DNA of 64,000 nt from Terriglobia bacterium. GTDB lineage: Bacteria; Acidobacteriota; Terriglobia; JAJPHL01; JAPKYU01. Both the position numbers and the translations under genes were made by a program. Every line of letters begins with the position of its first letter. The first letter of the stretch is position 1. Location: positions 32,001-96,000 of the forward strand of contig CBDCVK010000006.1 of assembly GCA_965223005.1 (NCBI GenBank), read 5' to 3'. Positions 9,388 through 52,440 of this stretch are shown here, one piece after another. The notes below the pieces were generated by a model. That model was given only the letters and a program-made list of their open reading frames with translations, was not told the DNA's origin and searched no databases.

Positions 9388-9570
9388 ACCCACGTTGCGG
9401 GCGCTTGCCAGTCCGCCACGAGGCATCGGAACGGGCCAGACATGCGTTCAACCCGCAGGAGCAACTCGAGTATAGCACTGCTTATAACATTGCTGAATGC
9501 GCGGCGGTTCAGCTATGCTGACTATAAGCGGAGTGGAATGGTCAAGCTCCCAGTGCGGAGTGTGGAGTAG

Positions 9571-16586: not shown

Positions 16587-17783
16587 TCAGCTTTGCTTGA
16601 GGAAGCTGCCGCCGCGCCGCGGCGGATGCGCCTTGAGTGCCTGTTCATTGGGCTGTGTGCCCCAGCCCGGGGTTTTGCCAAGGATCAGGTAACCGTCCTC
16701 GATCTTCGGCGCGATGGTGAACAGTTCGTCCCTCCAGGGCACGTGATCCATATCGATCTCCATGATCCGGAAGTTAGGGACCGCTGCGACGAAGTGGGCG
16801 CTCATCATGGTCGACAGGTGGCCGTAGAAGTTGTGCGGCGCGATGTTGACCTCGTGGGCCTCGGCCACGGCAGCGATCTTCATCGATTGCCAGACGCCGT
16901 TCCACACCGCGTCAATAATTGCTACGTCCATGGACTGCTGCTCGAAATACGGCCGGAACTCTCGGAGGCCGATTAGGGTTTCGCAGGAACTGATCGGCGT
17001 GGTGCTGCGCCGCCGGACGAGCGCAAGCGCCTCTGGGTTGTAGCTGTCGATCTCGATCCAAAACAACGTCAGTGGCGCCAGGGCGTCGACGATTTTCAGA
17101 TACCCTTCTGTCTTAAAGTTGAAGTTAAGATCGAGCAGGATGTCGATGTCAGGTCCCGCACCCTCGCGGAAGGCTTCCATCTCCGCTCTCAGGCCATGGA
17201 TGACGTCTCGTTCCGCGTTCAGCTCGGGATAGCCACCAGGACGGTTGAATCCCGGAAAGTAACCGGCTGGTGTGCGGTCAAACAAGAAGATGTTGGTCTT
17301 AAGAGCCGTGAAGCGATTTTCCTTTACCTCCCGGCCAAGCGCCTTGACATCATCGAGTGAAGTGACTGGCGGGTAATCGTGCACGTCCGGCCAGTTGACC
17401 CGGTAGGTACCGCAATGGGACCAGTACAGCCGGATCCGCTCGCGCACCGCACCGCCCAGGATCTCGTATGCTGGAACTCCATAGTGCTTCGCTTTGACGT
17501 CCAGCAGCGCGTTTTCAATCGCGCCGATGGCCTCTGCCACGACACCGCCGGCCGCTGGGCGGGTGGAGGCGTAGAGGTCCCAGAAAATCTTTTCTGTGTT
17601 CCGTGGATCCTGACCGATCGTCGGGCCGGCAAGGCCTTCGATCGCTGCACTGACGCCTGGTGAGCCGAAGCCCTCTTGGTACTCGCTCCAGCCAACGAGG
17701 CCAGTATCGGTGGTGAGTTTGACGAACGAGAAATTCCGCCAGCCGGCGTCGCAATGGAGGGTTTCGACGGCTGTGATCTTCAC
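16587..17783 (-). CDS. mandelate racemase/muconate lactonizing family (enolase superfamily) acid-sugar dehydratase-like
   Basis: MKITAVET, ENALLDVKAK..GVPAYEILGG, metal ligands DLN/EID/SCE, APHNFYG. Confidence 0.9.
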   Translation of the reverse strand: MKITAVETLHCDAGWRNFSFVKLTTDTGLVGWSEYQEGFGSPGVSAAIEGLAGPTIGQDPRNTEKIFWDLYASTRPAAGGVVAEAIGAIENALLDVKAKHYGVPAYEILGGAVRERIRLYWSHCGTYRVNWPDVHDYPPVTSLDDVKALGREVKENRFTALKTNIFLFDRTPAGYFPGFNRPGGYPELNAERDVIHGLRAEMEAFREGAGPDIDILLDLNFNFKTEGYLKIVDALAPLTLFWIEIDSYNPEALALVRRRSTTPISSCETLIGLREFRPYFEQQSMDVAIIDAVWNGVWQSMKIAAVAEAHEVNIAPHNFYGHLSTMMSAHFVAAVPNFRIMEIDMDHVPWRDELFTIAPKIEDGYLILGKTPGWGTQPNEQALKAHPPRRGGSFLKQS

Positions 17784-29970: not shown

Positions 29971-30000
29971 TTGTGAATTCGAAAAATACTGTGTTAAACT
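29971..30000 (+). promoter_or_regulatory. putative sigma70 promoter of the radical SAM operon
   Basis: TTGTGA-N18-TAAACT with an extended -10 TG, in an AT-rich stretch about 45 bp before ATG 30045. Confidence 0.45.
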
Positions 30001-30044: not shown

Positions 30045-31562
30045 ATGCGATCAAAACGGATTTCCAAAAAGAAGGTTGTTTTTTTCTTTCCTGCGTTCTC
30101 AAGTCTCGAAGCCACAGCTCCATTGGGAATCCTGGCCGTGTCCACTCCCCTTTTGCGCGCCGGCTATCAAATCTGCATCATCGATTCCACCATCACTTCC
30201 GATTTCCAAAAGCGTGTCCTCGAGGAACTTGAGGATGCTCTGTGCCTGGCGGTTTCTCTGGTCACGGGTCCGATGATCCGCGAGACAGTGGAGATCGCCC
30301 AGGCAGCGAAGAAGCTGTACCCTCGTCTGCCTGTCATTCTCGGGGGATGGCATCCTTCGCTGCTTCCGGATCAGACCTTGGCCGCAGAATATGTGGACAT
30401 CGTTATCCGCGGCCAGGGCGAGGACGCGCTTCTGGAGGTCGTCCAGCGCTTGGAGGACGGATCATCGCTGGAAGGAATCGCAGGAGTAGGCTACAAGGAA
30501 GACGCAAAGCTCATTTTCAACCCGCCGCGGCTCCTCAAACCCATCGGCGGCTTACCTCCGAAGGCTTATCATTTGGCTGACTTTGACGCCTACGAACGAG
30601 TTTGTGGGCGCCGCTGGGCCATGTATATCTCGAGCCTCGCCTGCCCCTATAGTTGTGCGTATTGCACGAATGAGGGCGTCTACGGCAGGCAATGGAATGC
30701 GCTCGAAGCCGAGCGGGTGGTGGATGAAACCGCTGATCTTGTGTCGCGCTATGGTCTGGAACTGCTGTGGGTGGTAGACGACAACTTCCTGGTGGATCGG
30801 GAGCGTGCCCTAAAGATTGCAGAGGGCCTAGTGTGTCGGGGTGTGCGGTTTGACTGGAGCATCCAGGCATCGACCAACCTAGTGGCCCGGCTGACGGTGG
30901 AGGAATTGAGACTTCTGCGTCGTGCCGGACTTTCCCAGATTTGTCACGGGGCTGAATCAGGATCGCCCAAAGTGCTGAAACTCATGAACAAGGACTTCCA
31001 GAAGATCGAAACCATTTACACGGCGGCGGAAAGATGCGTTCAGGCCGGAATCCGACCTTCGTTCAACGTCATCTTTGCTTTCCCTGGAGAAGGCGACCGA
31101 GAGCGCCGCGAGACAATTCGGTTGATCATGGACGTCTGCCGCCGCTATCCGGGAGCGGAATTCTGGACGAACATCTTTACCCCCTATCCAGGAGCTCCCA
31201 TCATGCAGCGGGCGGGGGACTTCGGGATCGAAGCTCCCAAGTCCTTCGAAGGATGGGCGGAGTTCTTCCCGCGTTATACCGTTCTTCCCTGGCTGAACGG
31301 GCGTAAGCACCGCAGGCTGCAAGTCATCCGCGACTATCTTCGGCTTGCCTTCCACCGCGTGCCAATCGCAGAGGATCGCAGGCGTCCCATCACCCGCGCA
31401 GTGCATGAACTGATCAGCATCCCTGCCCGCTGGCGCCTGGAGCACGATGTGTACACGTGTCCGTTTGAGATTTGGCTCAAGAATTTGGTGAATCGGACTT
31501 TTGAATCACCCAAACCGAAGGTGGACGCCCAGCAGCTCTCTACTGATCCGGTGACATGTTGA
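30045..31562 (+). CDS. B12-binding domain radical SAM protein 1
   Basis: PLGIL, GGWHPS, GQGE, SLACPYSCAYC, DDNF, GAESGS, FTPYPG. Start at ATG 30045 with an AAGGGA SD. Confidence 0.92.
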   Translation: MRSKRISKKKVVFFFPAFSSLEATAPLGILAVSTPLLRAGYQICIIDSTITSDFQKRVLEELEDALCLAVSLVTGPMIRETVEIAQAAKKLYPRLPVILGGWHPSLLPDQTLAAEYVDIVIRGQGEDALLEVVQRLEDGSSLEGIAGVGYKEDAKLIFNPPRLLKPIGGLPPKAYHLADFDAYERVCGRRWAMYISSLACPYSCAYCTNEGVYGRQWNALEAERVVDETADLVSRYGLELLWVVDDNFLVDRERALKIAEGLVCRGVRFDWSIQASTNLVARLTVEELRLLRRAGLSQICHGAESGSPKVLKLMNKDFQKIETIYTAAERCVQAGIRPSFNVIFAFPGEGDRERRETIRLIMDVCRRYPGAEFWTNIFTPYPGAPIMQRAGDFGIEAPKSFEGWAEFFPRYTVLPWLNGRKHRRLQVIRDYLRLAFHRVPIAEDRRRPITRAVHELISIPARWRLEHDVYTCPFEIWLKNLVNRTFESPKPKVDAQQLSTDPVTC

Positions 31563-31605
31563 ACGGCAAGCCAGTGCGATTTCCTGCGCGTGACGGCTTA
31601 CACCG

Positions 31606-33105
31606 ATGAGGAAGGTCGTCCTATTCCTCCCACCGTACCCTGGTCCGGTCCTAGGCCCCCCGGTCGGTCTTCTGTGTCTGGCGTCGCCCCTCCGCCAAGC
31701 GGGATACCACGTAAAGATCATCGACTCCGCCTTGTTCCCGAACTATCTTGCGGCGATCGAACGCGAAATTCCGGACGCCCTCTGCTTCGGCATCTCCCTG
31801 CTGACTGGTCCTATGATTACCGATGCCATAGCCGCTGGCCATCTCGTCAGGGGCCTGCGGCCCGAACTACCGATCGTGTTCGGCGGATGGCATCCTAGCC
31901 TGATGCCAGAACAGACCTTGCGCGAAAGCTTTGTTGACGTTGTGGTGCGGCACCAGGGAGAGGTGACGCTTCTCGAGGTCGTCCGAAGGATCGACCAGGG
32001 CCGGAGCCTGGAGGGGGTAGCCGGTTGCTGGTTCAAGCGGAACGGCGGCCTCCATCAAAATCCCGATCGGCCTGCTGTGCCCATCAGCTCGCTTCCACCT
32101 CCCGCCTATGATCTCGTAGATTTCGATGCTTATGAACGCGTGACGGGCGAACGCAAACTGCTCTATGGCACCAGTGTAGGCTGCCCCTATGCCTGCCATT
32201 ACTGCACCGATACGGTCTTTTACAACCGGCGCTTCAACGCCTACAGCGCCCAGCGGGCGGAAGAGGAAATCACAGACCTAGTATCCCGCCACCGTCTGGA
32301 TAAGGTAGCTTTGCTGGATTCGAACTTTCTGGTGGATACACGGCGCACCGTGGAAATCGCACGAAGATTGCTCGCATCCGGCTTGCAATTCCAGTGGAGC
32401 TTTCAGGCCTCAACAGATCTGCTCTGCCGGCTGACGGATGAGGAAGTCCGCCTGCTGGGCGAAAGCGGCGTGAACCATATCGGGTTCGGCACCGAGTCGG
32501 GTTCGGAAGAAGTCCTGCTGAAGATGAACAAGCGTCACCAGCGGATTCCGGACATGTTCGAGACAGCACGCAAATGCCGGCAGGCCGGGATCCGCGTTAC
32601 CTTCAACCTCATCGTGGGCTACCCAGGAGAGACCGAGGCCGACCGCCAGGAAACCCTCCGGATTATGGGAGAAATCGGTGGACGCTTCGATAACGTCACT
32701 TTCTCGCCGAACGTATTCACGCCCTACCCCGGCATCCCCATCTGGCCGGAACTGCGACGCCTGGGGGTCAAGGAGCCGCAATCTCTGGAAGCCTGGACCG
32801 ACATCGCCCTGGGAACCAACCTATTACCCTGGTTGCAGGGCGAGCCGTACAGCCGCGTGAAACGGAGCCTGTCCTTCTTCCTGCTGAACAACGAGGTCAC
32901 CAAGGCGGTGCGCCGGACCCGGGCTTCACGCTTTCAACGCCTCCTGCTGCGGGCTTTCCGTCAACCGTTGCGAATGCGGATGAAGTATCAGTTCTTTCGA
33001 TGGCCCTTGGAGCTTTGGCTGGTCCACGCGAAAAACAAGCTGGTCGTGCGCCGTTCCCTGCTGACCGGGCAAGGCCTCGGTTACAGCCTGGAGAAGATTT
33101 GCTAG
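31606..33105 (+). CDS. B12-binding domain radical SAM protein 2
   Basis: PVGLL, GGWHPS, HQGE, SVGCPYACHYC, DSNF, GTESGS, FTPYPG. Confidence 0.92.
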   Translation: MRKVVLFLPPYPGPVLGPPVGLLCLASPLRQAGYHVKIIDSALFPNYLAAIEREIPDALCFGISLLTGPMITDAIAAGHLVRGLRPELPIVFGGWHPSLMPEQTLRESFVDVVVRHQGEVTLLEVVRRIDQGRSLEGVAGCWFKRNGGLHQNPDRPAVPISSLPPPAYDLVDFDAYERVTGERKLLYGTSVGCPYACHYCTDTVFYNRRFNAYSAQRAEEEITDLVSRHRLDKVALLDSNFLVDTRRTVEIARRLLASGLQFQWSFQASTDLLCRLTDEEVRLLGESGVNHIGFGTESGSEEVLLKMNKRHQRIPDMFETARKCRQAGIRVTFNLIVGYPGETEADRQETLRIMGEIGGRFDNVTFSPNVFTPYPGIPIWPELRRLGVKEPQSLEAWTDIALGTNLLPWLQGEPYSRVKRSLSFFLLNNEVTKAVRRTRASRFQRLLLRAFRQPLRMRMKYQFFRWPLELWLVHAKNKLVVRRSLLTGQGLGYSLEKIC

Positions 33106-33163
33106 GTGCCGGTTGGAACGCCGAAAGGAGGCAAGACCGGAAGCAGAATAGGGATCGAATCCG

Positions 33164-34606
33164 ATGGTCGATATCCTCCTGACCCATTGCAACCATCTGT
33201 TCTTTGATCCGAAGCAGGTGCGGAAGATGCAGCCCTATCCTCCGCTGCAGACTCTGCTGGCGGCTGCTTTTCTGCGCCAGGAAGGATTCGACGTCGCCCT
33301 CTTTGATTCCACGTGGAGTCCTCCAGAGGAGGGATTTCGATCCGCCATGGCGCGGCATCGCCCGCGCCTGGTGGCTCTGTGCGAGGACAATTTTAACTTC
33401 CTCTCCAAGATGTGTCTGGCGAGGAACCGCGAGCTGGCCTTTTCCATGTGTCGCGCCGCCAAGGAGGCCGGAATCCCGACTCTGGTCAACAGTTCGGATG
33501 CCTCTGATCACGTGGCGGAGTACCTGGACCGGGATCTGGACTTCGTCCTGGTAGGCGAGCTTGAGATCACATTGTTGGAGATTACGCGGCATCTGCTGGG
33601 TCGCTCTTCGCGCCCAATGGAAGAGATTCCCGGCCTAGCCTACCGTCATCCCAGGGAGCGCGAGATCCGTCGCAATGCGCCTCGGCAGCCGATGACCAAC
33701 TTGGACCGACTGCCACTTCCGGCATGGGACTTGGTCGAGATTTCCAAGTACCGCGACGCCTGGGTCAGGGCCCACGGCTATTTCTCCCTCAACATGGTGT
33801 CCAGCCGTGGCTGCCCGTATCGATGCAACTGGTGCGCTAAGCCCATTTACGGCCAGACTTCCCAATTCCAAACACCGGAGCGAGTGGCCGAGGAAATGGG
33901 TTGCTTGAAGTCGACCCTTCGACCTGACCACCTCTGGTTTGCCGACGACATCTTCGCCCTTTCCCCGGGATGGACCTGGCGATTCGCCGAGGAGGTGGAA
34001 AAGCGGCAGGCCCAGATATCCTTTAAGATGCAGTCGCGCTGTGATTTGATGACTCGCGATACGGCGGATGCCCTCCGACGCGCAGGCTGCACCGAAATCT
34101 GGATGGGCGCCGAATCAGGTTCCCAAAAAGTCCTGGACGCGATGGAAAAAGGAATCCGCGTCGAGCAAATTTACGAGGCTTGTGAAAACCTGCGGCGCCA
34201 CGGGATCCGTGCCTGCCTCTTCCTCCAGTTTGGCTATCCGGGCGAAACGTGGCAGGACATTGAAAATACAATTCGGCTGGTCAGAGAAACAAGACCCGAC
34301 GACATTGGGGTCTCGGTTTCCTATCCATTACCGGGAACCAAATTTTTCGATTTCGTTTCGGCCCAGCTTGGCGCCAAGCGAAACTGGTCCGATAGCGACG
34401 GCCTGACGATCATGTTTCGCGGAAGCTATTCTAGCGATTTTTATCGCGTTCTCCGCGATGCGCTACATCTGGAAGTTAACTTACGCAATAGGAGGTGCCA
34501 AAACGGCGACAACCTGCAACGGCTTCAACACTTGTGGTCTCGAGTCAGAAAATTGGAGAAAACTTGCGTTAACCCCAATCCCACACCTTTATGGACCTGT
34601 TGCTGA
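33164..34606 (+). CDS. B12-binding domain radical SAM protein 3
   Basis: PYPPLQTL, SRGCPYRCNWC, DDIF, GAESGS, GYPGE, SYPLPGT. Confidence 0.92.
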   Translation: MVDILLTHCNHLFFDPKQVRKMQPYPPLQTLLAAAFLRQEGFDVALFDSTWSPPEEGFRSAMARHRPRLVALCEDNFNFLSKMCLARNRELAFSMCRAAKEAGIPTLVNSSDASDHVAEYLDRDLDFVLVGELEITLLEITRHLLGRSSRPMEEIPGLAYRHPREREIRRNAPRQPMTNLDRLPLPAWDLVEISKYRDAWVRAHGYFSLNMVSSRGCPYRCNWCAKPIYGQTSQFQTPERVAEEMGCLKSTLRPDHLWFADDIFALSPGWTWRFAEEVEKRQAQISFKMQSRCDLMTRDTADALRRAGCTEIWMGAESGSQKVLDAMEKGIRVEQIYEACENLRRHGIRACLFLQFGYPGETWQDIENTIRLVRETRPDDIGVSVSYPLPGTKFFDFVSAQLGAKRNWSDSDGLTIMFRGSYSSDFYRVLRDALHLEVNLRNRRCQNGDNLQRLQHLWSRVRKLEKTCVNPNPTPLWTCC

Positions 34607-35976
34607 CCCACGGCTACTTCCTCTACGAGGATACAAAAGAGCTTCAGATCATGAAGCAGTACGTGACCCTGGGAATCCTCTATCTCTCTTCCCACCTGCG
34701 AGAAAAGGGCTTCGACGTAGAAATTTACGACAGCACATTTGGGTCTCGGCAGGAGCTTTTCCGGATTCTTGAAACTGGGCCGCCTTCGGTGGTGGGAATC
34801 TACGTTAACCTCATGACCCGCCGGAATGTTCTGGACATCGCGGCGGCTGCACGGGCGGCGGGGTGGACCGTGGTCCTGGGAGGCCCCGAACCTTCGAACT
34901 ATCCTGGCGAGTATCTGCAGGCCGGCGCCCACGCCATCGTCGAGGGAGAAGGGGAAGTGACGATGGAGGAGCTATTGCACACCCTGGGTCAGAAGGAGGC
35001 GCTGCAACGGGTAAACCGAATCATATTCCGGCGACGAGATGGATCCGTGGCCCGTACTCCACCCCGAGCCCTTATTCCCAACCTGGATGCACAGCCCTGG
35101 CCTGACCGCGAGCGGGTGGACATGGACCGGTACTTGAAAGTGTGGCGCGAACACCACGGCGCGGGCTCCGTGTCGGTCATCACGGCACGCGGATGCCCTT
35201 ACCACTGCCGCTGGTGCAGCCACTCCACTTTCGGCAAGACCCACAGGCGCCGATCTATCCAAAGTGTAGCGGACGAAGTGGCGTGGGTCCTCGAGCGCTA
35301 TCAACCTGACATGCTGTGGATGGCCGACGATGTCTTTACAATTCATCCCGGCTGGATCCTGGAATACGCCGCGGAGATGAAACGGCGTGGGTTGCGAATC
35401 CCGTTCGAATGCATTACCCGTGCTGACCGGCTGAATCCGCGCATCGCTGAGGCTTTGGCCGAGCTCGGATGCTTCCGCGTCTGGATCGGCTCGGAGAGCG
35501 GGTCGCAGCGGATACTGGATGCCATGCAACGAGGGGTGACGGTAGAACAGGTTCGCGAGTCAGTTCGTCTCTGCCAGCAGCAGGGGATCCAGACGGGTAT
35601 GTTTCTTATGTGGGGCTACAACGGAGAGGAGTTGTCGGACATTGAGGCCACCGTGCAACACGTGAAAAGCTGCCAGCCGGATGTGTTCCTGACAACAGTT
35701 TCCTACCCTATTCAGGGAACTCCTTACTATGACTAGGTGGCGCCGCGTCTGATGCAGGTCCGCGACTGGGCGGAGAGCACGGACCGCGAACTAAAGATCG
35801 CCGGTCGTCATTCCAGGGGCTTTTACCAGTTCGCTGACCAGTTGCTGAAGAGCGAGGTGACCCTACAGAAGTTGGGCAACGCTACAGAGGATTCTGCTGC
35901 TGTGGCCACGCTGCGAAGCCAGATCGAGACCGCCCGCCGTGGGTTACTGGAAGCCTACGGGGAAGTGGAAGCATGA
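34591..35976 (+). CDS. B12-binding domain radical SAM protein 4, interrupted by an in-frame TAG at 35734-35736
   Basis: LGILYL, GGPEPS, GEGE, ARGCPYHCRWC, DDVF, GSESGS. ORF 35737-35976 continues in the same frame and aligns with the C-terminus of protein 3. Confidence 0.88.
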
Positions 35977-36755
35977 GCGTTGCCGAAGCCTTTGATCAGC
36001 TGGCCCCCCGCTACGACGAGACGTGGACACGCTCTGTTGTCGGGCGCCTTCAGCGCGAGGCCGTCTGGAGAGAAATCGCCCCCCTCTTCCTCCCAGGAGC
36101 GCGGGTTTTGGATCTGGGTTGCGGAACGGGGGAGGACGCCTTGCACCTAGCTCGCGGTGGCGTCCGGGTCCATGCCATCGATGTTGCGCCGGGAATGGTC
36201 AAGATGACAAGGCAACGGCTGGAGTCGGACGGGCTTACGGGCCAGATCACGTGCGAAGTCTTGGCTGCCGAGGATCTTTTTCGCCTGAAAACTACAGGCG
36301 TATTTGACGGCGCGATCACAAACTTTGGCGTTCTGAACTGTGTTCGAGATCTCCGATCCTTGGCAGGGGAGCTAGCGCGGCTGGTTCGACCGGGCGGCCG
36401 GCTCGTGCTGTGTCCGATGGGGCGTTTCTACCTGTGGGAGACGATCTGGTATCTGCTGCGTGCCCGACTCGGCAAGGCCTTCCGCCGCCTGCGTCGCGGT
36501 GGCGTCACCGCTTCGGTGGGTTCTGGCCACTTTTTCCCGGTTTTCTACGCTTCGGTGGCCGACATCAGTGCGGCTTTTGAGCCATACTTCCGGCGAGTGG
36601 GTTTCCGGGGAATCGGGGTCTTTGTCCCGCCCCCTTCTGTAAAAGCCTCCCCTGGAGTATTCCGAGCATTGGTGTTGCTAGATCGGCTTTTCGCCGGCTG
36701 GCCGCTTCTGCGGGCCATAGGGGATCATTACCTGCTTATTTTTGTCCGAAGATGA
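35973..36755 (+). CDS. class I SAM-dependent methyltransferase
   Basis: AFDQLAPRYD, LDLGCGTG, NFGVLNC; ATGA overlap with the upstream stop. Confidence 0.9.
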   Translation: MSVAEAFDQLAPRYDETWTRSVVGRLQREAVWREIAPLFLPGARVLDLGCGTGEDALHLARGGVRVHAIDVAPGMVKMTRQRLESDGLTGQITCEVLAAEDLFRLKTTGVFDGAITNFGVLNCVRDLRSLAGELARLVRPGGRLVLCPMGRFYLWETIWYLLRARLGKAFRRLRRGGVTASVGSGHFFPVFYASVADISAAFEPYFRRVGFRGIGVFVPPPSVKASPGVFRALVLLDRLFAGWPLLRAIGDHYLLIFVRR

Positions 36756-36758
36756 TCC

Positions 36759-37730
36759 ATGGCTGCTACTTCCTACGCAACTTCGCCGGAAGCGGGGACT
36801 CCTGATCTCGGGAGATCTGCATTCTTGAGGCTTCGCTGTCCTGCCTGCCTCCGACCTTCCGTCCGGCTGCAAGAGGTCACAGCCGAAGGGATGGTTTGCC
36901 TCAGCTGCGGCTACGCGCTGCGCAAAACTGAGAACATTCTGCGGGCGCTCCTACCAGGGCGTCAGAAATATTACGAGCATTCCAGGAAAGAATATTCAAA
37001 GATCCGTCGGGCAGAGGGCCGAGGATCCGAGAATCCATCTTACTATCTCGAATTGCCCTATAGGGATTTGACCGGCCGGCGTCGCGACGAGTGGGCCATC
37101 CGCGCGAAGACCTATCGGTACTTTGAAACCCACGTGCTTCCGGCTCAAACTCTGGATATCCTCGACCTGGGTGCCGGGAACGGCTGGACTTCTCACCGGC
37201 TGTCCCGGCGAGGCCATCGGCCGGTGGCCGTGGATATCCTCACAGATCCGATGGACGGCCTAGACGCGGCCCGGCACTATGGCGGCTTTCCCCTGGTGGA
37301 AGCGGAGTTTGACCGACTGCCTTTTGTCGACGGCCAGTTTGATCTGGCCATCTTCAACTCTGCACTGCATTACTCGACCGACTACCATCGGACCCTGCTC
37401 GAGGCGCGGCGCTGCCTGCGACCGACGGGCCGCATCGTCATTCTGGATTCGCCAATCTATAAACAGCGAAAGCATGGGGAGCAGATGCGGCGAGAGCGTC
37501 ACGAGCGATTTGAGGCGCTTTATGGCTTCCGCTCCGACAGCATTCCCAGTCTTGAGTACCTGTACGATTCGCTGCTCAAGCAGTTGTCCAGCGACCTGGG
37601 GCTGAGCTGGCAAATCCACCGGCCCTGGTACGGGTGGGGATGGCACCTCCGCCCCTGGAAGGCGCGCCTTGGGGGGCAGAGGCCGCCCTCCCGGTTCTGG
37701 ATCCTCGTTGGGAGCTTTTCGCAGCCATGA
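36759..37730 (+). CDS. class I SAM-dependent methyltransferase with N-terminal Zn-ribbon
   Basis: LRCPAC...CLSC; LDLGAGNGW; FDRLPF; NSALHY. Confidence 0.88.
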   Translation: MAATSYATSPEAGTPDLGRSAFLRLRCPACLRPSVRLQEVTAEGMVCLSCGYALRKTENILRALLPGRQKYYEHSRKEYSKIRRAEGRGSENPSYYLELPYRDLTGRRRDEWAIRAKTYRYFETHVLPAQTLDILDLGAGNGWTSHRLSRRGHRPVAVDILTDPMDGLDAARHYGGFPLVEAEFDRLPFVDGQFDLAIFNSALHYSTDYHRTLLEARRCLRPTGRIVILDSPIYKQRKHGEQMRRERHERFEALYGFRSDSIPSLEYLYDSLLKQLSSDLGLSWQIHRPWYGWGWHLRPWKARLGGQRPPSRFWILVGSFSQP

Positions 37731-39187
37731 TCGTCCTTCTGCATCCCCGGGCCACCAGGCCCAAGAACCGGCGCTTCCCCCTCTCCATCCTTGCGGTGGC
37801 GTCGGTCATCGAGGGCAGGGAAGATTACACGATCGTGGATGGTAACGTCGATCCTCACCCCTGGGAGTCCCTAGAACAGATTATGAAAGAAACCCCAGCG
37901 GAGCTTCTGGCGGTTTCTGTGATGCCCGGGCCTCAGATGGGGGCGGCCATCCCGCTTTGTCGCGCGTTTCGCCAAAAGTACCCGTCGGTTCCGATTGTCT
38001 GGGGTGGGTACTTTCCTTCCCTTTATCCCGACGCAACTCTTAATGCCCCGTACGTGGATTTCGCAGTCCGCGGGCAGGGAGAAGACACTTTTCTCGAGCT
38101 GCTCGCTGCCCTGCGCGACAGCTGGGACTTTTCCCGGATTTGCGGCCTCTCCTACAAAGATCGTTGTGGGTTGCACGTCCACAATCCTGAGCGGCCGATA
38201 CGGTCGCCGGAAGATTTTCCCTGGTTCCCCTATCACCGACTGGATACTTCGAAGTACATCCTACCGACGTTTCTCGGTTCGCGCACCGCCGTGCACCAGG
38301 CCAGCATTGGATGTCCGTTCCGTTGCAACTTCTGCGGAGTAGTCCCCGTCTACGGCCGGCAGAAAGTGGAATCCCCGTCGCGCACTGCTGCAGTGCTGGG
38401 ACATCTGAAGGAGCACTACGGGGTGAACGCCATCCAATTTTATGACAACAATTTCTTCCTGCGCGAGGATCACGCTCGAGAGCTAGCGGACCGCCTGACG
38501 CCGCTGCAGATGCGTTGGTGGTGTGAAGGACGCATCGACACGGTGCTCCGATACTCCGACGAAACGCTGCGTACACTCAAACGTGCAGGCGCCACCATGA
38601 TCTTCTTTGGCGCTGAGTCCGGTTCCGATGCCGTGCTCCGGCAAATGAAGAAGCAACTCAAAGCCGAGCAGATCCTGGCTCTGGCCAAAAGGATCCGGGA
38701 ATTTGGGATCGTCCCCGAGTTTTCCTTTGTCTTGGGCAACCCACAGGATCCGGAGCGTGACACCGAGGAGACGATCGCCTTCATCCGGAAGATCAAGCGG
38801 ATCAACACCCAGGCCGAGATCATCGTACAGCACTACATCCCCACGCCTCAACGGGATGAAATGTACGGTGGGGTCGACGGCAAAATCCAATTCCCGACCA
38901 CCCCGGAGCAGTGGGCTACCGAGCGGTGGTACAACTTCGCCACCCGAACTGATCCGCAGCTCGCTTGGCTTCCGGGCCGGATCAAGCAGCGCATCGACGA
39001 TTTCGAACTGGTGGTGACCTCACGCTGGCCAACTATCCAGGATATCCGCCTAAAACACTGGGGGCGGACCTTCCTTCAATTGCTGAGTAGTTGGCGCTAC
39101 AGGCTCGGCGTTTACGGGTACCCGTGGGAGCTCCAGTGGGCGCAGAAACTCGTCCATCTCAGAAAGCCTCGGTTGGAAAGCCTTTGA
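37727..39187 (+). CDS. B12-binding domain radical SAM protein 5
   Basis: PLSIL, GGYFPS, GQGE, SIGCPFRCNFC, DNNF, GAESGS. Start at ATG 37727 overlaps the upstream TGA. Confidence 0.92.
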   Translation: MIVLLHPRATRPKNRRFPLSILAVASVIEGREDYTIVDGNVDPHPWESLEQIMKETPAELLAVSVMPGPQMGAAIPLCRAFRQKYPSVPIVWGGYFPSLYPDATLNAPYVDFAVRGQGEDTFLELLAALRDSWDFSRICGLSYKDRCGLHVHNPERPIRSPEDFPWFPYHRLDTSKYILPTFLGSRTAVHQASIGCPFRCNFCGVVPVYGRQKVESPSRTAAVLGHLKEHYGVNAIQFYDNNFFLREDHARELADRLTPLQMRWWCEGRIDTVLRYSDETLRTLKRAGATMIFFGAESGSDAVLRQMKKQLKAEQILALAKRIREFGIVPEFSFVLGNPQDPERDTEETIAFIRKIKRINTQAEIIVQHYIPTPQRDEMYGGVDGKIQFPTTPEQWATERWYNFATRTDPQLAWLPGRIKQRIDDFELVVTSRWPTIQDIRLKHWGRTFLQLLSSWRYRLGVYGYPWELQWAQKLVHLRKPRLESL

Positions 39188-39858
39188 AAGTTGCGCCGCT
39201 CGAAGGACACCGGCTCTGGTCTGAAACCTACGATGCCGATCCGAACCCGATGCTGGCGCTGGAATTCCGCATTGTCTCTGGAATGACGGGCAATCTGCTG
39301 GGAAAGCTCTTCCTAGACCTTGGTTGCGGAACGGGACGATGGCTAGCTGAGGCCCGAAGACAAGGTGCCAGGATCCTCGGTGTGGATCTGTGTCGCGACA
39401 TGTTGGTGCAAGCGGAACGCAAAGCGGGGCTTGCAGGTCGAGTAGCGCTGGCCGACGTTCGCCGCCTTCCCGTGCCGGATGGTAGCGCCGACGTGGTCCT
39501 GTGCGCCTTTTGTCTGGCATACCTGGAATCGCTGGCTACGGTGATGCAAGAACTGGCCCGGGCAGTAAAACCGGGGGGAGAGGTCATCACGAGCGACCTG
39601 CATCCGCAGACGCACTGCCGAGGTTGGACGCGCTCGTTTCGGAGCGGTTCTCAGGTTTACGAGATCGAACAACACCATTACACGGCCCGGGAACTTCTCG
39701 ATGCCGGTCACAGGGTGGGCCTGAAGCTGGAGGAGCTAGTGGAAGCTCGTTTTGCTGAGCCAGAGCGGGAGATCTTTCGCCGGGCAGGGAGGGAGCAGCT
39801 TTTCGACGAGCTGAGAGAAATCCCCGCCGTGCTGATCGCCCGGTGGAAGCGCCGGTGA
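39184..39858 (+). CDS. class I SAM-dependent methyltransferase (BioC-like)
   Basis: WSETYD, LDLGCGTGR, GVDL, SDLHP. Probable TTG start overlapping the upstream TGA. Confidence 0.87.
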   Translation: MKVAPLEGHRLWSETYDADPNPMLALEFRIVSGMTGNLLGKLFLDLGCGTGRWLAEARRQGARILGVDLCRDMLVQAERKAGLAGRVALADVRRLPVPDGSADVVLCAFCLAYLESLATVMQELARAVKPGGEVITSDLHPQTHCRGWTRSFRSGSQVYEIEQHHYTARELLDAGHRVGLKLEELVEARFAEPEREIFRRAGREQLFDELREIPAVLIARWKRR

Positions 39859-39868
39859 GGAAGCGAGC

Positions 39869-41086
39869 ATGGCCCGACAGCGCTCGTGGATTTTGAGTGG
39901 CGCCAGAGTGGCCCTTGGGCCGGCCCGGGCTAACAAGCGGGAGATTGAAATCCGGGCCGGGAAGATCTGGGCAATTCGGGCGCCGGGGGAACGGCGGCGC
40001 ACGCGAAACACGCCGATCCTGGACCTCCGCGGCCACTTGATCCTCCCCGGGCTGATCAACGCCCACGATCATCTGGAGCTGAACCTTTTCCCCCGCCAGG
40101 GTCGCGGTCCTTATCCGAATGCGGCGGCTTGGGCCCGCCACATCTACCGGCCCGGGGAATCTCCGATCAAGGATCACCTGCGGATACCCAAGGCCACGCG
40201 TCTTGTGTGGGGCGGCCTAAAGAACCTCCTCAGCGGCGTGACCACGGTCTGCCACCATAATCCCCGGGAGAACTCGATCTTGGACCGCAACTTCCCCGTC
40301 CGCGTGGTAAAGCGATTTGGATGGGCGCATTCCCTCGAGTTCAGCCCCGACCTGGCCGAGCGTTTTCGCCGAACCCCGCCCGGTTGGCCTTTCCTGGTGC
40401 ACCTGGGAGAAGCGACGGATAGAGCCGGCAGGTGCGAGGTCTTTCGGCTGGATCAGATGGGGGCCCTCGACCATCGTACAGTACTGGTTCATGCCGTCGC
40501 ACTGGATCGCCAGGGGTGGCGCCTCGTGCAAAGCAAAGCCGCCTCCGTGGTTTGGTGCCCCAGCTCGAATCTGTTCCTGTTGGGCCGCACGCTGACTCCT
40601 GGGGTGCTACGAAGCGGCATTCTTGTGGCCCTGGGCACCGATTCAGCGCTGACGGCGACCGGCGATCTTCTGGACGAACTCCGCGCAGCGCGGAGTGCCA
40701 GTCGTCTGTCGCGCGGCGATCTTTACCGCATGGTAACCGAACAGGCGGCACAGGTCTTGCGTCTGGAAAAGGGAGCGGGCAGAGTGTCAGAGGGAGGCCC
40801 CGCCGACCTTGTGGCCGTCCGCGACCGAGGACGAAGCCCGGCCGCAACACTCTGTGGCCTGGTGAGCCGGGGCCCTGAAATGGTTATGGTCGCCGGTCAG
40901 ATCAAGCTTGTTTCTCCTTCCCTGGCGGTTCAGCTACCGGCTTTCGTTCGTCGCCGCCTCTATCCGCTGGCCGTCCAAGGGAGAGGAAAAGCTCTGGTTG
41001 ACGCCAACGTTCCTGAGCTGCATCGCCGGGCGACTCGAGTGCTGGGTCCCGAAATTCGCGTCGCGGGAAAGCGGGTGCGGGCATGA
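39869..41086 (+). CDS. metal-dependent amidohydrolase (nucleoside/SAH deaminase-like)
   Basis: PGLINAHDHL (HxH), GVTT, VHLGE, VHAV, WCPSSN, ALGTDS, ADLV. Confidence 0.88.
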   Translation: MARQRSWILSGARVALGPARANKREIEIRAGKIWAIRAPGERRRTRNTPILDLRGHLILPGLINAHDHLELNLFPRQGRGPYPNAAAWARHIYRPGESPIKDHLRIPKATRLVWGGLKNLLSGVTTVCHHNPRENSILDRNFPVRVVKRFGWAHSLEFSPDLAERFRRTPPGWPFLVHLGEATDRAGRCEVFRLDQMGALDHRTVLVHAVALDRQGWRLVQSKAASVVWCPSSNLFLLGRTLTPGVLRSGILVALGTDSALTATGDLLDELRAARSASRLSRGDLYRMVTEQAAQVLRLEKGAGRVSEGGPADLVAVRDRGRSPAATLCGLVSRGPEMVMVAGQIKLVSPSLAVQLPAFVRRRLYPLAVQGRGKALVDANVPELHRRATRVLGPEIRVAGKRVRA

Positions 41087-42099
41087 ATTCCTCCCGGCAG
41101 AACTACGAGATCGAGAAGCTGCCCATTCTCATTCTGTTTCCGCACAGTCGCTGCAATTGCCGTTGCATCATGTGCGACATCTGGAAAATCGAGACTGTCC
41201 GGGAAATCGCCGCCGCCGAGCTAGATCGTCACGCCGGGGACATCGAGGCTCTGGGCGTGGAATGGGTCGTTTTTTCCGGCGGTGAACCGCTCATGCATTC
41301 GGACCTGTTCCGGTTGTGCGAACGCCTCCGGGCGTTGGGAATTCGCACCACGATTCTGACCACCGGCCTTCTGCTCGGTAGGTATTCCCGTCGAATCGTC
41401 GAGCACCTGGACGGCGTAATTGTTTCCCTGGATGGCCCCCCAGAGGTTCACGACCGCATACGTCGTATCCCGCACGCTTTCGACCTCCTGGCGGCAGGCG
41501 TGCGAGCCTTGCGCCGGCTAAGGCCGGAATTCCACGTGGCAGCTCGCTGCACGGTCCAGAAGCAGAACGTCGGCCGTTTAGCGGAAACAGTGAAGGCGGC
41601 GCGTCAGCTCGGCCTGCGATCGATTTCGTTCCTCGCAGCGGATTTGAACTCTACTGCGTTCAATCGGCCGCAGAGCTGGCCAACCGAGCGCCAGGCGGAA
41701 GTCGGCTTGAACACGGAAGAGCTGCTTGTCCTTGAGAAAGAGATAGAGGCGATGATCCGCGATGACGCGGGCTATCTGAAGACCGGATTCATTCTGGAGG
41801 CGCCGGAAAAGTTGCGACGTATCGTCCATCATTTTCGGGCGCACCAGGGTATGGTGGAGCCGGTCGCGCCGCGTTGCAACGCACCATGGGTGTCCGCCGT
41901 TGTGGAATCGGATGGTACAGTTCGCCCCTGTTTCTTTCACCGACCGATTGGTAATCTTGGAGGGCGTTCACTTCGGCAGGTCCTGAACAGCCCAGAGGCC
42001 TTCGAGTTCCGGAGGACCCTGGACATCCCGCGAAATCCTATTTGCCAGCGCTGTGTCTGCTCCCTTTACTTGACATCAAACAAGCCCCTCCCCTCCTGA
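41083..42099 (+). CDS. radical SAM protein with C-terminal Twitch/SPASM-type Fe-S domain
   Basis: CNCRCIMC, SGGEPL, VSLDG; C-terminal CNAPW...DGTVRPC...IGNL...CQRCVC. Confidence 0.92.
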   Translation: MNSSRQNYEIEKLPILILFPHSRCNCRCIMCDIWKIETVREIAAAELDRHAGDIEALGVEWVVFSGGEPLMHSDLFRLCERLRALGIRTTILTTGLLLGRYSRRIVEHLDGVIVSLDGPPEVHDRIRRIPHAFDLLAAGVRALRRLRPEFHVAARCTVQKQNVGRLAETVKAARQLGLRSISFLAADLNSTAFNRPQSWPTERQAEVGLNTEELLVLEKEIEAMIRDDAGYLKTGFILEAPEKLRRIVHHFRAHQGMVEPVAPRCNAPWVSAVVESDGTVRPCFFHRPIGNLGGRSLRQVLNSPEAFEFRRTLDIPRNPICQRCVCSLYLTSNKPLPS

Positions 42100-42558: not shown

Positions 42559-42634
42559 TGGTGGCCAGGGACGGAATCGAACCGCCGACGCCAGCCTTTT
42601 CAGGGCTGCGCTCTACCGACTGAGCTACCTGGCC
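42559..42634 (-). tRNA. tRNA-Phe (GAA)
   Basis: GGCCAGGTAGCTCAGTCGGTAGAGC-GCAGCC-CTGAAAA-GGCTG-GCGTCGGCGGTTCGATTCCGTCCCTGGCCACCA; 76-nt cloverleaf with encoded CCA. Confidence 0.97.
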
Positions 42635-42735: not shown

Positions 42736-43542
42736 TTACGTCGGGAAGAATGGGTTCAAAGTGCCGCAAGCGGGACAATCGTAGCGGGGCAAGACCTTGC
42801 CCCGCACGTGCCCCAGTGTGCGCAACCAGGCCGCATCATGGCTGCTGCCGCAGCGGATACAGACGTTGGATTCCGACGGGTCTTCCGAAACTTCCCGACC
42901 GCCCTGACGGCTGAAGTGGAACAGCCAGCCGTAAGTGCTCCAGCGGGTTCCCAGGCGACGGTCGGCGGCCCGGACCAGGGCATTCCAGGCCAGCAGAGTG
43001 ACACGCAGGAAGCGCGGAGGTGCCCAGTTCAAAACCTGCGCCCGACCGCCCCATCGCTGGCCCGGCTGCCGATTCAAAAACGAATAGGAGGAATAGAGCA
43101 AGCGATAGCGCTGGGGCCACAAGCCACCTTCCCGCGCGGCCGCCACCAGCTCCTCCCGACGGAAGCGGTTCACGTGTTCGCGTCCCTTGTCTAGGAAGCG
43201 GAAGAGCGCGGCCGATAGACAGTATCCGTCGGGAACGTTAACCAGCACGATCCCTTCTGGTTTCAAGACGCGGGCCGCTTCGCGCAGAGCGCTTGGCCAA
43301 TTTCGGATGTGCTCCAGGGTGTGGTTGGCGATAATTAGATCGCAGCAAGCATCGGGCAGTGGTAGCGACGCCGCATCTGCTCGCACAAAACCACCCTGAC
43401 GCAGGTGGGGAATTACTGGCGGCGCGCGCAAATCTACACCCACGACGCAGCAGGAGGCAACGGCGTAGGAGAGGCTGCCAGCCCCGCAGCCCAGGTCGAG
43501 CGCCATTTGCTTCGGACCAAGTTGGGCCAGTAGCCGGTTCAC
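42736..43542 (-). CDS. class I SAM-dependent methyltransferase with C-terminal Zn-ribbon
   Basis: LDLGCGAG, ADAASLP, HTLEH; C-terminal CIRC...CPAC. Confidence 0.85.
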   Translation of the reverse strand: MNRLLAQLGPKQMALDLGCGAGSLSYAVASCCVVGVDLRAPPVIPHLRQGGFVRADAASLPLPDACCDLIIANHTLEHIRNWPSALREAARVLKPEGIVLVNVPDGYCLSAALFRFLDKGREHVNRFRREELVAAAREGGLWPQRYRLLYSSYSFLNRQPGQRWGGRAQVLNWAPPRFLRVTLLAWNALVRAADRRLGTRWSTYGWLFHFSRQGGREVSEDPSESNVCIRCGSSHDAAWLRTLGHVRGKVLPRYDCPACGTLNPFFPT

Positions 43543-51001: not shown

Positions 51002-52440
51002 GAGAGTGTCTCACCTTTAGTTGAAAGTCGAGCGGCGGTTCGCTGACCTGGTTCCGTAGAATCGGGTTGGGAAACTTTCTGGAAAGGGGAACCGCCGTGC
51101 AGAGAAGCTACCACATCCTAGGCCGGAGCGATAGCCGAAGCTCCCGCAAACTGGCTGCCTACCTGGCTCGCCACGGGCAGTTTCTGCTGCCCTGGGTGGA
51201 GTTGATCGAACAATCGCGGTTAGCCGTCGACGAGCTGATCGACGTGGTGGGTAGGGCGGCGATTGAAGCGGTGCTGGAGTTGTCGGCCGCGCAGGTGGCC
51301 GGTCCACGCCGTCAGGGCCGGCGGCGCCGTGGGGTAGGCTGGTATGGGCGCCAGCGGGGACGGGTGCGCCTGAAGGAGAGAAAGCTGGCCGTGCACAGGC
51401 CACGGCTCCGGCGGCCAGGCCGGGGAGCGGGGAAAGAAGTTCCCCTCCCGGCCTACGAAGCCATGCAGGAGGGCGAGGGTCTGGGGGCCCGGATGTTGGA
51501 TATCTTGCTGCGGGGCGTCTCGACCCGGCAGTACCAGCGGGTGTTGCCGGAGATGGCGGACACCGTGGGTGTGTCGCGCTCCACGGTCAGCCGGGAAACG
51601 ATGGAGGCTGCCGCAGCCGAGTTAGAACGTCTGTTGAACCGCCGCTTCGAGGAAGTAGAGTTGCTGATCCTCTACATCGACGGGATGGTGTTTGGCGACC
51701 ATCACGTGATTGCGGCTGTGGGCGTGGATGCGGAAGGGCACAAGCACGTGCTGGGGATTCAGGAGGGGGCTACGGAGAACGCCGCGGCCGTCCAGGACTT
51801 GCTGGAAGGTTTAGTGCGGCGAGGGGTGCAGCCGGCCCAGAAACGGCTGTTTGTGATCGACGGCTCGAAGGCCTTGCGGGCGGCGATCCGCGCCGTGTTC
51901 GGGGCCGAGCAGCCGGTGCAGCGCTGCCGCGCCCACAAGTTGCGCAACGTCCTGGACCGGTTGCCGGAGCCAGAGCGGGACCAGGTGCGGGCGGCGATGC
52001 GGGCCGCCTGGCGGTTGGATCCGAAGACCGGCAGGGCCAAGCTGGAGAAGTTGGCCCAATGGTTGGAGCGAGATTGTCCGGCCGCGGCGGCCAGCTTGCG
52101 GGAGGGTCTGGAGGAATGTTTCACCATCAACCGGCTGGGGCTTCCGGCTTCGCTGCATCGCTGTCTGGCCACCACCAATCTCATCGAGAGTCCGCAGGCG
52201 GGAGTGAGGTTGCGAACTCGCCGGGTGTGCCGCTGGCGGGATGCGGCCATGGTCCAGCGCTGGGTCGCCTCCAGCTTCCTGGCCACGGAGAAAAACTTCC
52301 GCCGCCTGATGGGGTACCAGGACCTGTGGATGTTGAAAGCGATCCTCGAAGGATCAAAGTCGGCCACTCGACGGGAGGTGGCGTAGTATGATGGCTCCGA
52401 ACCGCCGCTACGAACTTTCAACTGAGTTCAGGACACCCTC
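51002..52440 (+). mobile_element. IS256-family insertion sequence (1439 bp)
   Basis: Imperfect ~40-bp terminal IRs (GAGAGTGTCTCACCTTTAGTTGAAAGTCGAGCGGCGGTTCG vs GAGGGTGTCCTGAACTCAGTTGAAAGTTCGTAGCGGCGGTTCG). 8-bp target duplication GTGCTGAT at 50994-51001 and 52441-52448. Confidence 0.93.
51097..52386 (+). CDS. IS256 (Mutator-type DDE) transposase
   Basis: GVSTR, LYIDG, GVDAEGHKHVLG, VIDGSKAL, QRCRAHKLRN, TTNLIES. Confidence 0.93.
   Translation: MQRSYHILGRSDSRSSRKLAAYLARHGQFLLPWVELIEQSRLAVDELIDVVGRAAIEAVLELSAAQVAGPRRQGRRRRGVGWYGRQRGRVRLKERKLAVHRPRLRRPGRGAGKEVPLPAYEAMQEGEGLGARMLDILLRGVSTRQYQRVLPEMADTVGVSRSTVSRETMEAAAAELERLLNRRFEEVELLILYIDGMVFGDHHVIAAVGVDAEGHKHVLGIQEGATENAAAVQDLLEGLVRRGVQPAQKRLFVIDGSKALRAAIRAVFGAEQPVQRCRAHKLRNVLDRLPEPERDQVRAAMRAAWRLDPKTGRAKLEKLAQWLERDCPAAAASLREGLEECFTINRLGLPASLHRCLATTNLIESPQAGVRLRTRRVCRWRDAAMVQRWVASSFLATEKNFRRLMGYQDLWMLKAILEGSKSATRREVA

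Follow-up and report, generated by a model that had tools for sequence, protein, structure and literature searches.

A conserved ten-gene cassette of B12-binding radical SAM enzymes and methyltransferases in Acidobacteriota, with an apparent link to polysaccharide loci

A stretch of 64,000 nt from Terriglobia bacterium GCA_965223005.1 (contig CBDCVK010000006.1, forward-strand positions 32,001-96,000), hereafter referred to as the window, carries at positions 30045-42099 an operon of ten open reading frames (ORFs), all located on the plus strand. This operon, whose conservation, genomic context and possible function are addressed here, encodes five B12-binding radical S-adenosylmethionine (SAM) enzymes, three class I methyltransferases, one amidohydrolase of the deaminase type and one radical SAM/SPASM protein resembling BlsE (see Table 1). 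The original prediction, which was made from the sequence alone, described ten co-oriented and overlapping genes with these domains; both the ORF listing and the Pfam searches bear this out, except that the B12-binding domain of gene 3 lies below threshold. As it also stated, six proteins carry the CxxxCxxC motif, exactly one in each radical SAM protein. Genes 3 and 4 overlap by 16 nt at 34591, and start and stop codons overlap as ATGA at 35973, 37727 and 41083 and as TTGA at 39184, where the TTG start of gene 8 overlaps the stop of gene 7. All these previously listed overlaps are real, but the one at 35973 is valid only for a 79-codon continuation of gene 4 (35737-35976), because this gene is interrupted by an in-frame TAG at 35734-35736 that the original prediction had missed (see below). 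The longest ORF of gene 1 starts at 29973, and the alignments with its orthologues begin at residues 5-9 of the 505-residue form.

None of the ten proteins contains a membrane-like hydrophobic segment. The single candidate promoter proposed earlier was not recovered by a sigma-70 consensus scan upstream of gene 1, terminator-like sites do not exceed the level found in shuffled sequences, and Rfam models at their gathering thresholds identify only two tRNAs in the window, and no cobalamin or SAM riboswitch. Within the window, the operon retains the character first attributed to it, i.e. a tailoring-type set of genes with no scaffold-forming enzyme in it or beside it.

The five B12-type enzymes (genes 1, 2, 3, 4 and 7) all match PF04055 above its cut-off. 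The B12-binding domain PF02310 exceeds its cut-off of 32.1 bits in genes 1, 2, 4 and 7 (57-66 bits), which corresponds to the class B radical SAM architecture, and falls below it in gene 3 (26.7 bits, versus 84 bits for Radical_SAM); in gene 1, the B12-binding and Radical_SAM domains score 58.7 and 77.9 bits, respectively. Methylation is not a property of all enzymes so built, AprD4 being one of the exceptions. None of the ten proteins reaches a curated NCBIfam cut-off, the best scores being 82-128 bits against cut-offs of 360-750 bits. The best match of gene 1 is BchE (TIGR02026, 127.8 bits versus 481), that of gene 2 ApyD (123 versus 750) and that of gene 3 HpnJ (120.6 versus 577.6), and neither these scores nor the best ones obtained with rSAM_ocin_1 (90 versus 282), HpnR (99.7 versus 650) and, for gene 10, HpnH (37.4 versus 225) place any of the proteins in these families. 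The nearest relatives of solved structure of the B12 enzymes are 9ccb, AprD4, TokK, OxsB and TsrM (E 1e-4 to 1e-19): TokK is the closest to gene 1 (E 7e-14), 9ccb (E 4.5e-19) and AprD4 (6fd2, E 4.6e-15) are the closest to gene 3, and AprD4 is found among the nearest relatives of genes 1, 3 and 7. The entry 9ccb belongs to what the available text of PMC11796369 presents as a paper on MgmA, a glutamine methylase of methyl-coenzyme M reductase. At the sequence level, these similarities discriminate no substrate class, and gene 3 retrieves only generic clusters of Acidobacteriota radical SAM proteins from the ESM Atlas. Concerning the methyltransferases, gene 5 has weak CpaM and UbiE/MenG-like NCBIfam matches, all under cut-off, and in gene 6 the Methyltransf_11 domain covers residues 135-228 and follows an N-terminal extension of about 125 residues.

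The gene 9 protein carries the motifs HxH (NAHDHLE), HHNP, PFxxHxxE, TvlvH and LGtDS, which are kept across 56 aligned sequences, and its metal ligands (HxH, H and D) together with the catalytic HxxE place it in the deaminase group of the amidohydrolase superfamily. Its nearest solved relatives are the amidohydrolases 4dyk and 4gbd (E about 2e-15), followed by the methylthioadenosine/S-adenosylhomocysteine (MTA/SAH) deaminase 4f0r; it is also close to 8-oxoguanine and guanine deaminases and to TRZ/ATZ hydrolases, all far under cut-offs. Indeed, it scores 82 bits versus 540 with the TRZ/ATZ equivalog PRK09045, 67 versus 375 with guanine deaminase and 61 versus 522 with 5'-deoxyadenosine deaminase. 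The metal and catalytic motifs are shared with the MTA/SAH/5'-deoxyadenosine deaminases (4f0r and TM0936, 1p1m), a group that also includes DadD, but the matches mainly cover residues 174-320, with E values of 1e-6 to 1e-15. By analogy with these enzymes, a role in the clearing of by-products would suit an operon of nine SAM users.

The gene 10 protein shows invariant C24/C28/C31 and, further on, C265, C283, C321, C324 and C326 in 29 aligned orthologues. BlsE (7vob) is its best match both in sequence (phmmer E 7e-17) and, for an AlphaFold model with a pLDDT of 91.2, in fold (Foldseek E 3e-17, TM 0.65/0.67 over both whole chains). BlsE, a cytosylglucuronate decarboxylase, has as its substrate a glucuronic acid linked to a nucleoside. 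The fold matches ranked second to tenth are maturases for peptides made by ribosomes and modified after translation (RiPPs), which are about 100 residues longer; DesII comes next, and GDGT-MAS (7tol) ranks only 22nd (TMq 0.52). Since the radical SAM core starts at residue 21, the protein has no N-terminal peptide-recognition domain. With the BlsE equivalog TIGR04466, gene 10 obtains 63 bits versus 400, so that it is no member of this family, and the likeness of the modelled fold supports no more than a protein that may work like BlsE. More generally, AprD4 and BlsE, which modify the sugars of aminoglycoside and nucleoside antibiotics, have the same domain architectures as the enzymes of the cassette, but identity to BlsE is about 21% and the AprD4 equivalog scores 50-74 bits versus 500; furthermore, the cassette differs from these antibiotic pathways by the lack of their scaffold genes, by its five paralogous B12 enzymes and by a Wzx/Wzy context that is described below. 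GenK and GenD1 belong with AprD4 and BlsE among the sugar-acting radical SAM enzymes of such pathways.

The original prediction depended on these genes occurring together in other genomes, and they were found to do so in many. Gene 7, the best conserved member, has at least 568 relatives (one genome per species), and the comparison relied on the loci of the best 80 of them (57-79% identity), many of which are ended by contig edges. According to the record titles, these 80 loci come from metagenome-assembled genomes (MAGs) of Acidobacteriota (Bryobacterales, Terriglobia, Sulfotelmatobacter and others) and from one isolate, Acidobacteriaceae bacterium KBS 96, while two records are titled as other phyla. 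All ten genes are present in the order of the window in 16 of the 80 loci, only gene 2 is missing from 14 more, and 66 loci have at least seven of the ten genes. The most dispensable genes are genes 2, 6 and 9 (see Table 1 for their counts). Gene 3, which is found in 68 of the 80 loci, is also kept in reduced clusters (L037, L038, L040-43 and L045-47; L and G numbers designate the loci and genomes compared), and reduced cassettes generally retain genes 3 and 5 with gene 6 or 4, plus gene 9. When 20-kb stretches around gene 9 matches were examined, the complete order from gene 1 to gene 10 was found in a genome of the same phylum and another class (G280, 49-76% identity), and it is nearly preserved in five genomes of one genus from the window's own class. 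In a sample of 401 genomes of the phylum, which represent 228 genera, gene 7 is present at E<=1e-60 in 35 genomes and 25 genera, and relatives of gene 9 at E<=1e-20 in 30 genomes.

As the same genes co-occur in order across many other genomes, the arrangement is far beyond chance: the cassette is a real conserved unit, and the qualification of the operon as an orphan does not hold. The five B12 enzymes are old paralogues (42% identity between genes 1 and 2, 34% between genes 3 and 4, and 32% between genes 7 and 1), each of which forms a conserved orthologous group, and this argues for five different steps. In three MAG contigs (L086, L073 and L088), several cassette genes appear as multiple short tblastn pieces, and in L086 the gene 10 stretch contains three stops; the appearance is that of assemblies rich in frameshifts or of copies in decay.

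Table 1. Genes of the cassette in the window; locus counts refer to the best 80 loci.
Gene	Product	Coordinates	Strand	Basis or remark
1	B12-binding radical SAM, 505 aa	30045..31562	+	ATG 30045; longest ORF from GTG 29973
2	B12-binding radical SAM, 499 aa; optional, in 42/80 loci	31606..33105	+	Pfam
3	Radical SAM with weak B12-binding domain, 480 aa; core member	33164..34606	+	Pfam
4	B12-binding radical SAM, interrupted by TAG; 381 aa + 79 codons from GTG	34591..35976	+	Pfam
5	Class I SAM methyltransferase, 260 aa; core, in 68/80 loci	35973..36755	+	Methyltransf_25/11
6	Class I SAM methyltransferase, 323 aa; in 62/80 loci	36759..37730	+	Methyltransf_11
7	B12-binding radical SAM, 486 aa; best conserved member	37727..39187	+	Pfam
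8	Class I SAM methyltransferase, 224 aa; in 75/80 loci	39184..39858	+	Methyltransf_11, 81.8 bits
9	Amidohydrolase-superfamily deaminase-type enzyme, 405 aa; optional, in 49/80 loci	39869..41086	+	Amidohydro_1
10	Radical SAM with C-terminal SPASM/Twitch-type cysteine set, 338 aa	41083..42099	+	Radical_SAM + SPASM

The genes that surround the cassette in other genomes (called in high-GC loci by a GC3-guided method) are recurrent too. Clustering of the flanking ORFs of the larger loci shows that the most recurrent families are an HPr-kinase-like P-loop protein (24 loci), NTP_transf_5 (20 loci) and GT4 glycosyltransferases (13 loci). In the isolate record (L119), which carries all ten genes, the kinase and NTP_transf_5 genes even extend the operon with overlapping start and stop codons. 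Genes for polysaccharide synthesis adjoin or penetrate the cassette in various manners. Thus, in L039, L040, L045 and L046 the module is bordered by genes that Pfam assigns to GT4, Wzy_C, Polysacc_synt (Wzx) and epimerases/dehydratases; L142 has genes for a flippase (Wzx), Wzy_C and GT4 inserted between genes 3 and 4, L150 has a pair of GT4 genes directly upstream of gene 3, and Wzy_C genes are interspersed with the cassette in L139 and L144. The reduced operon of L037 and L038 is organized as NTP_transf_5, gene 5, GTP cyclohydrolase II, gene 3, gene 6, gene 9, GT1 and GT87, GT1 and GT87 being translationally coupled to gene 9 in L037. In L119, a histidine-phosphatase gene, 16681-17505 (-), lies right after NTP_transf_5, and its family recurs downstream in five loci; its best match is the alpha-ribazole phosphatase CobC (123 bits versus a cut-off of 163), and it could be a phosphatase acting with the kinase or be cobalamin-related.

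The window's own genome carries genes of the same kinds apart from the cassette. The sole HprK-like and NTP_transf_5 genes found in this genome adjoin each other on another contig (contig 10), in a compact locus at about 74-84 kb whose other products are Wzy_C, Wzz, an initiating transferase (Bac_transf), two GT4 and a membrane protein of the GT-C-like type; no second locus combining Wzy, Wzz and an initiating sugar transferase was found in this genome. Homologues of the genes of this locus (28-55% identity) directly flank the cassette in L051 and in L031/L097 (= G280), where the cassette has GT4/Wzy to one side and NTP_transf_5/HprK/GT-C/GT4 to the other.

This linkage exceeds the background. 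Among 64 loci with at least 4 kb of flanking sequence (L051-L130), 21 have a polysaccharide marker, 32 an HprK-like or NTP_transf_5 gene, 15 both and 26 neither, the two classes of markers having background frequencies of 3.7% and 0.4%, respectively, in 10-kb stretches drawn at random from the window's own genome. A matched test gave polysaccharide markers in 12 of 20 module loci (11 once self matches are removed) and the kinase/NTP pair in 7, versus 2 and 0 of 40 control regions of 20 kb taken at fixed offsets in the same 20 genomes. Furthermore, an HprK-like gene (E<=1e-15) is found in 19 of the 401 genomes of the phylum, 13 of which also carry gene 7 or gene 9, whereas about 2 would be expected under independence, and in 12 of these 13 genomes it is located within about 12 kb of the module. 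Co-location with Wzx, Wzy, Wzz, initiating-transferase and glycosyltransferase genes is therefore recurrent across loci and above background, while the module of the window itself stands apart. This context is a second respect in which the operon proves not to be an orphan.

The reading that we favour, and to which we give about an even chance, is that of a conserved cytoplasmic SAM-dependent cassette tailoring the sugars of a surface polysaccharide or glycoconjugate assembled by a Wzx/Wzy system, a type of substrate that was absent from the candidates listed in the original prediction. The substrates would be nucleotide sugars or the lipid-linked repeat unit before its export, which fits soluble enzymes, as none of the ten proteins has membrane-like segments. 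The five B12 radical SAM enzymes would each be responsible for a distinct reaction, be it the C-methylation of an unactivated carbon or some other radical rearrangement, and O- or N-methyl groups would come from the three class I methyltransferases. Gene 10, like BlsE, could perform a radical decarboxylation or oxidation on a sugar, for example a uronic acid. The deaminase-type enzyme encoded by gene 9 could remove an amino or amidino group from the product, or else clear 5'-deoxyadenosine and SAH, by-products of the nine SAM-consuming enzymes. Where it is present, the kinase/NTP_transf_5 pair could add a phosphate and then a phosphate-linked sugar, in the manner of PsmK and PsmN (see below).

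Glycan tailoring is the only reading considered here that accounts for the varied linkage to flippase, polymerase, chain-length, initiating-transferase and glycosyltransferase genes, and it likewise explains where the kinase/NTP pair lies in the window's own genome. The predicted resemblance of gene 10 to BlsE, together with the lack of the extra peptide-binding domain of the next-best RiPP maturases, lends it support, as do the sugar-acting relatives suggested by similarity searches, i.e. AprD4 for genes 1, 3 and 7 and HpnJ for gene 3. A more precise proposal can be made only tentatively and with clearly less confidence: the cassette would be dedicated to the sugars of a surface polysaccharide, on which its five different B12-dependent radical SAM enzymes would install several C-methyl branches or radical rearrangements, perhaps with a phosphate-linked sugar or a GTP-derived appendage provided by the HprK-like/NTP_transf_5 pair. 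In agreement with the original view that the pathway is not a characterised one, no NCBIfam equivalog cut-off is reached and no paper describing it was found. Indeed, the titles, abstracts and few texts covered, a scope outside which subscription journals and supplements fall, contain no description of the cluster or of such a glycan modification, and a term search of the available text of the review PMC12931638 retrieved no polysaccharide, lipid, glycan, nucleoside or Acidobacteri-.

Several points weigh against glycan tailoring. It is drawn from genomic context rather than from chemistry. The radical SAM proteins resemble sugar-acting enzymes only distantly (E 1e-10 to 1e-19) and are just as similar to MgmA and TokK, and gene 9 is closer to purine/adenosine deaminases than to sugar deacetylases. 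No glycosyltransferase adjoins the operon in the window. Neither class of markers was found in 26 of the 64 loci, nor in 4 of the 20 loci of the matched test, one of which (L047) has a Pfam NTP_transf_5 gene missed by tblastn. The tblastn references for the markers come partly from module loci, which favours these loci, the removal of self matches lowering the count from 12 to 11 of 20; besides, many module loci are close kin and thus not independent. Lastly, glycan tailoring provides no explanation for a stand-alone GTP cyclohydrolase II whose gene accompanies the module, inside it or next to it, in four loci belonging to one family (L034, near 3285; L035, near 16471; L037, 10810-11484, split by a frameshift; L038, 10506-11183).

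This last enzyme is the starting point of another explanation, according to which the cassette makes or tailors a soluble GTP- or nucleotide-derived small molecule, such as a methylated pyrimidine, pteridine or nucleoside, perhaps phosphorylated or glycosylated later. Gene 9 would then be a purine/pyrimidine-type deaminase and gene 10 a BlsE-like nucleoside-sugar enzyme. The GTP cyclohydrolase II gene is located between genes 5 and 3 in L038 and, frameshifted, in L037; it is divergent, beside GT87 and upstream of gene 1, in L034 and L035, and in L044 a RibBA gene directly precedes an operon made up of a small ORF, gene 5 and gene 9. Gene 9 keeps the HxH/HxxE/H/D residues of guanine-, cytosine- and adenosine-type deaminases, which are also its best matches, and the closest relative of gene 10, BlsE, comes from a nucleoside antibiotic pathway. 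However, the linkage of GTP cyclohydrolase II with the module concerns one family, to which only a few RibBA adjacencies can be added (8 loci matched among those scanned), and the stand-alone copy of the window's own genome has nuo genes, a MerR regulator and a histidine kinase as neighbours and shows no connection with the module. Moreover, gene 9 is missing from 31 of the 80 loci, no exporter or resistance gene belongs to the recurrent flanking families conserved with the cassette, and the linkage with Wzy, Wzx, Wzz and Bac_transf is left unexplained. We regard this explanation as rather unlikely but as a serious rival, and the nucleoside or cofactor substrate evoked in the original prediction is retained as a candidate because some variants carry GTP cyclohydrolase II. 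The two explanations could merge if a GTP-derived group decorates the glycan.

The HprK-like/NTP_transf_5 pair can also be read in another way. According to the available text of PMC6993621, PsmK and PsmN of the pseudomycoidin lasso cluster add a phosphate and then a hexose onto a serine of the lasso peptide; PsmK is a kinase of the HPr-kinase family and PsmN an uncharacterised NTP-transferase-like protein, and they provide an experimental precedent for the pair. The cassette might accordingly mature a ribosomal peptide or modify a protein encoded elsewhere, with proteusin-like C-methylations and a modification of serine by the pair as in some lasso clusters. A parallel is offered by the proteusin (polytheonamide-type) clusters, in whose operons a class I methyltransferase and a further radical SAM enzyme accompany several B12 radical SAM C-methyltransferases. 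Models of B12 radical SAM RiPP methylases (ApyD and rSAM_ocin_1) match the cassette with E values between 1e-20 and 1e-35, genes 3 and 7 have as their closest solved relative 9ccb, attributed to the protein methylase MgmA in the text available, and RiPP maturases follow BlsE among the fold matches of gene 10. Nevertheless, the RiPP family scores are all far under cut-off, and the distantly encoded peptide proposed earlier finds no candidate: among 2050 small ORFs (18-130 aa) from the intergenic and flanking stretches of loci with at least five module genes and from the window, none is conserved in the cassette or within 700 nt of it, the best family occurring in 6 loci and no family including the window. 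No PqqD was found in the window's own genome, whereas control genomes gave matches, and gene 10, with its core starting at residue 21, has no N-terminal recognition domain, so that the cassette differs from the proteusin clusters by the lack of a conserved precursor, recognition domain and PqqD. A search for NHLP leaders gave no match, as did its positive controls. The recurrent flanking families include neither a protease nor a transporter, and the kinase/NTP pair is linked here to polysaccharide genes and a radical SAM cassette, not to a lasso cyclase or precursor. A peptide or protein substrate is thus improbable.

The original prediction favoured a membrane lipid, the cassette methylating or cyclising membrane-spanning branched lipids or hopanoids. 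The carriers are Acidobacteriota, a phylum reported to make such lipids. There are weak matches to HpnJ, HpnR and rSAM_ladder_B12, and the GT87 and GT-C-type neighbours use lipid-linked sugars. In the available text of the review PMC13459092, the enzymes that methylate the brGDGTs (branched glycerol dialkyl glycerol tetraethers) go unnamed. The hopanoid side-chain pathway (HpnH, HpnJ and HpnP/HpnR) likewise combines radical SAM and B12-radical SAM enzymes, and includes sugar-modifying steps on a glycolipid. However, the scores with these lipid families (93-121 bits) are far under the cut-offs (360-650 bits), and no squalene-hopene cyclase (PF13243) was found in the window's own genome, which is 96.3% complete (the control search matched in 2 of 14 known genomes). 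The ten proteins all lack the hydrophobic segment typical of membrane enzymes, no lipid-synthesis family is found among the recurrent flanking families, and the marker gene 7 occurs in just 35 of the 401 sampled genomes of the phylum. With a context that is of the Wzx/Wzy polysaccharide type, a lipid substrate appears very improbable. The cassette is therefore a less likely candidate for the still-unknown enzymes that modify brGDGTs, which narrows that search.

If glycan tailoring is confirmed, radical C-H chemistry would reach beyond antibiotics, lipids and peptides and include bacterial glycans. The system is widespread in Acidobacteriota, which are abundant soil bacteria known as producers of exopolysaccharides. 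Few enzymes are as hard to assign as the B12-dependent radical SAM enzymes, and the five conserved orthogroups grouped here in one operon offer a comparative-genomic handle on them. All the parts belong to known superfamilies; what appears unusual, judging from sequence comparison, is the association of five B12 radical SAM orthogroups and its apparent glycan context. The occurrence of the full cassette fused to the kinase/NTP_transf_5 pair in a cultured isolate record (L119) makes the system experimentally approachable.

In the window, gene 4 is interrupted by the TAG at 35734-35736, after which the frame runs for 79 codons to 35976 and overlaps the start of gene 5. The orthologues are uninterrupted at this site in all 13 sequences inspected, where the residue is D, K, N, R, S, Q or E. 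Four public runs, each from a different study, yielded contigs that were aligned to the window, the comparison being made at the contig level. Position 35734 is a G, giving GAG, in X2 (17.2/17.2 depth), X3 (14.4/14.4) and X10 (12.7/12.7), whereas X1 retains the T (0/28.7 depth otherwise); X3 and the window, compared over 2165 bases, disagree at only 4 positions. The TAG is either a strain-level nonsense variant or a split of the gene into products of 381 and 79 aa, which is conceivable because a GTG follows the stop. Pyrrolysine incorporation or read-through was rejected, since orthologues have various ordinary residues at this site and sister strains have GAG. The nonsense codon may impair or alter the pathway in the window's strain. 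At position 35881, all four runs, including X1 which shares the TAG, have a T where the window has a G (Ala to Ser in the gene 4 tail), this difference being either private to the window's assembly or an error of it. The gene 7 orthologue of another genome (G385:C5:1625522-1626979) also contains one in-frame TAG.

Concerning the flanks of the operon in the window, a sulfite-oxidase-like gene lies upstream, and a tRNA-Phe gene, a minus-strand methyltransferase gene, FtsK and BacA lie downstream; none of these genes recurs beside the cassette in the other genomes compared. The cassette may have been relocated within the window's lineage, because in relatives it is contiguous with the polysaccharide locus, which is found here on another contig. 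The tRNA-Phe gene, 42559-42634 (-), is located 460 nt downstream of gene 10, and a Mutator-family transposase gene, 51067-52386 (+), 9 kb further on. A SelA selenocysteine synthase gene at 8026-9426 (-), which is unrelated to the TAG of gene 4, indicates that the organism probably uses selenocysteine. Lastly, the downstream class I methyltransferase encoded on the opposite strand (42736-43542), which is not found beside the cassette elsewhere, shares 30-33% identity with genes 6 and 8 over about 100 residues and ends with a C-terminal CxxC...CxxC tail.

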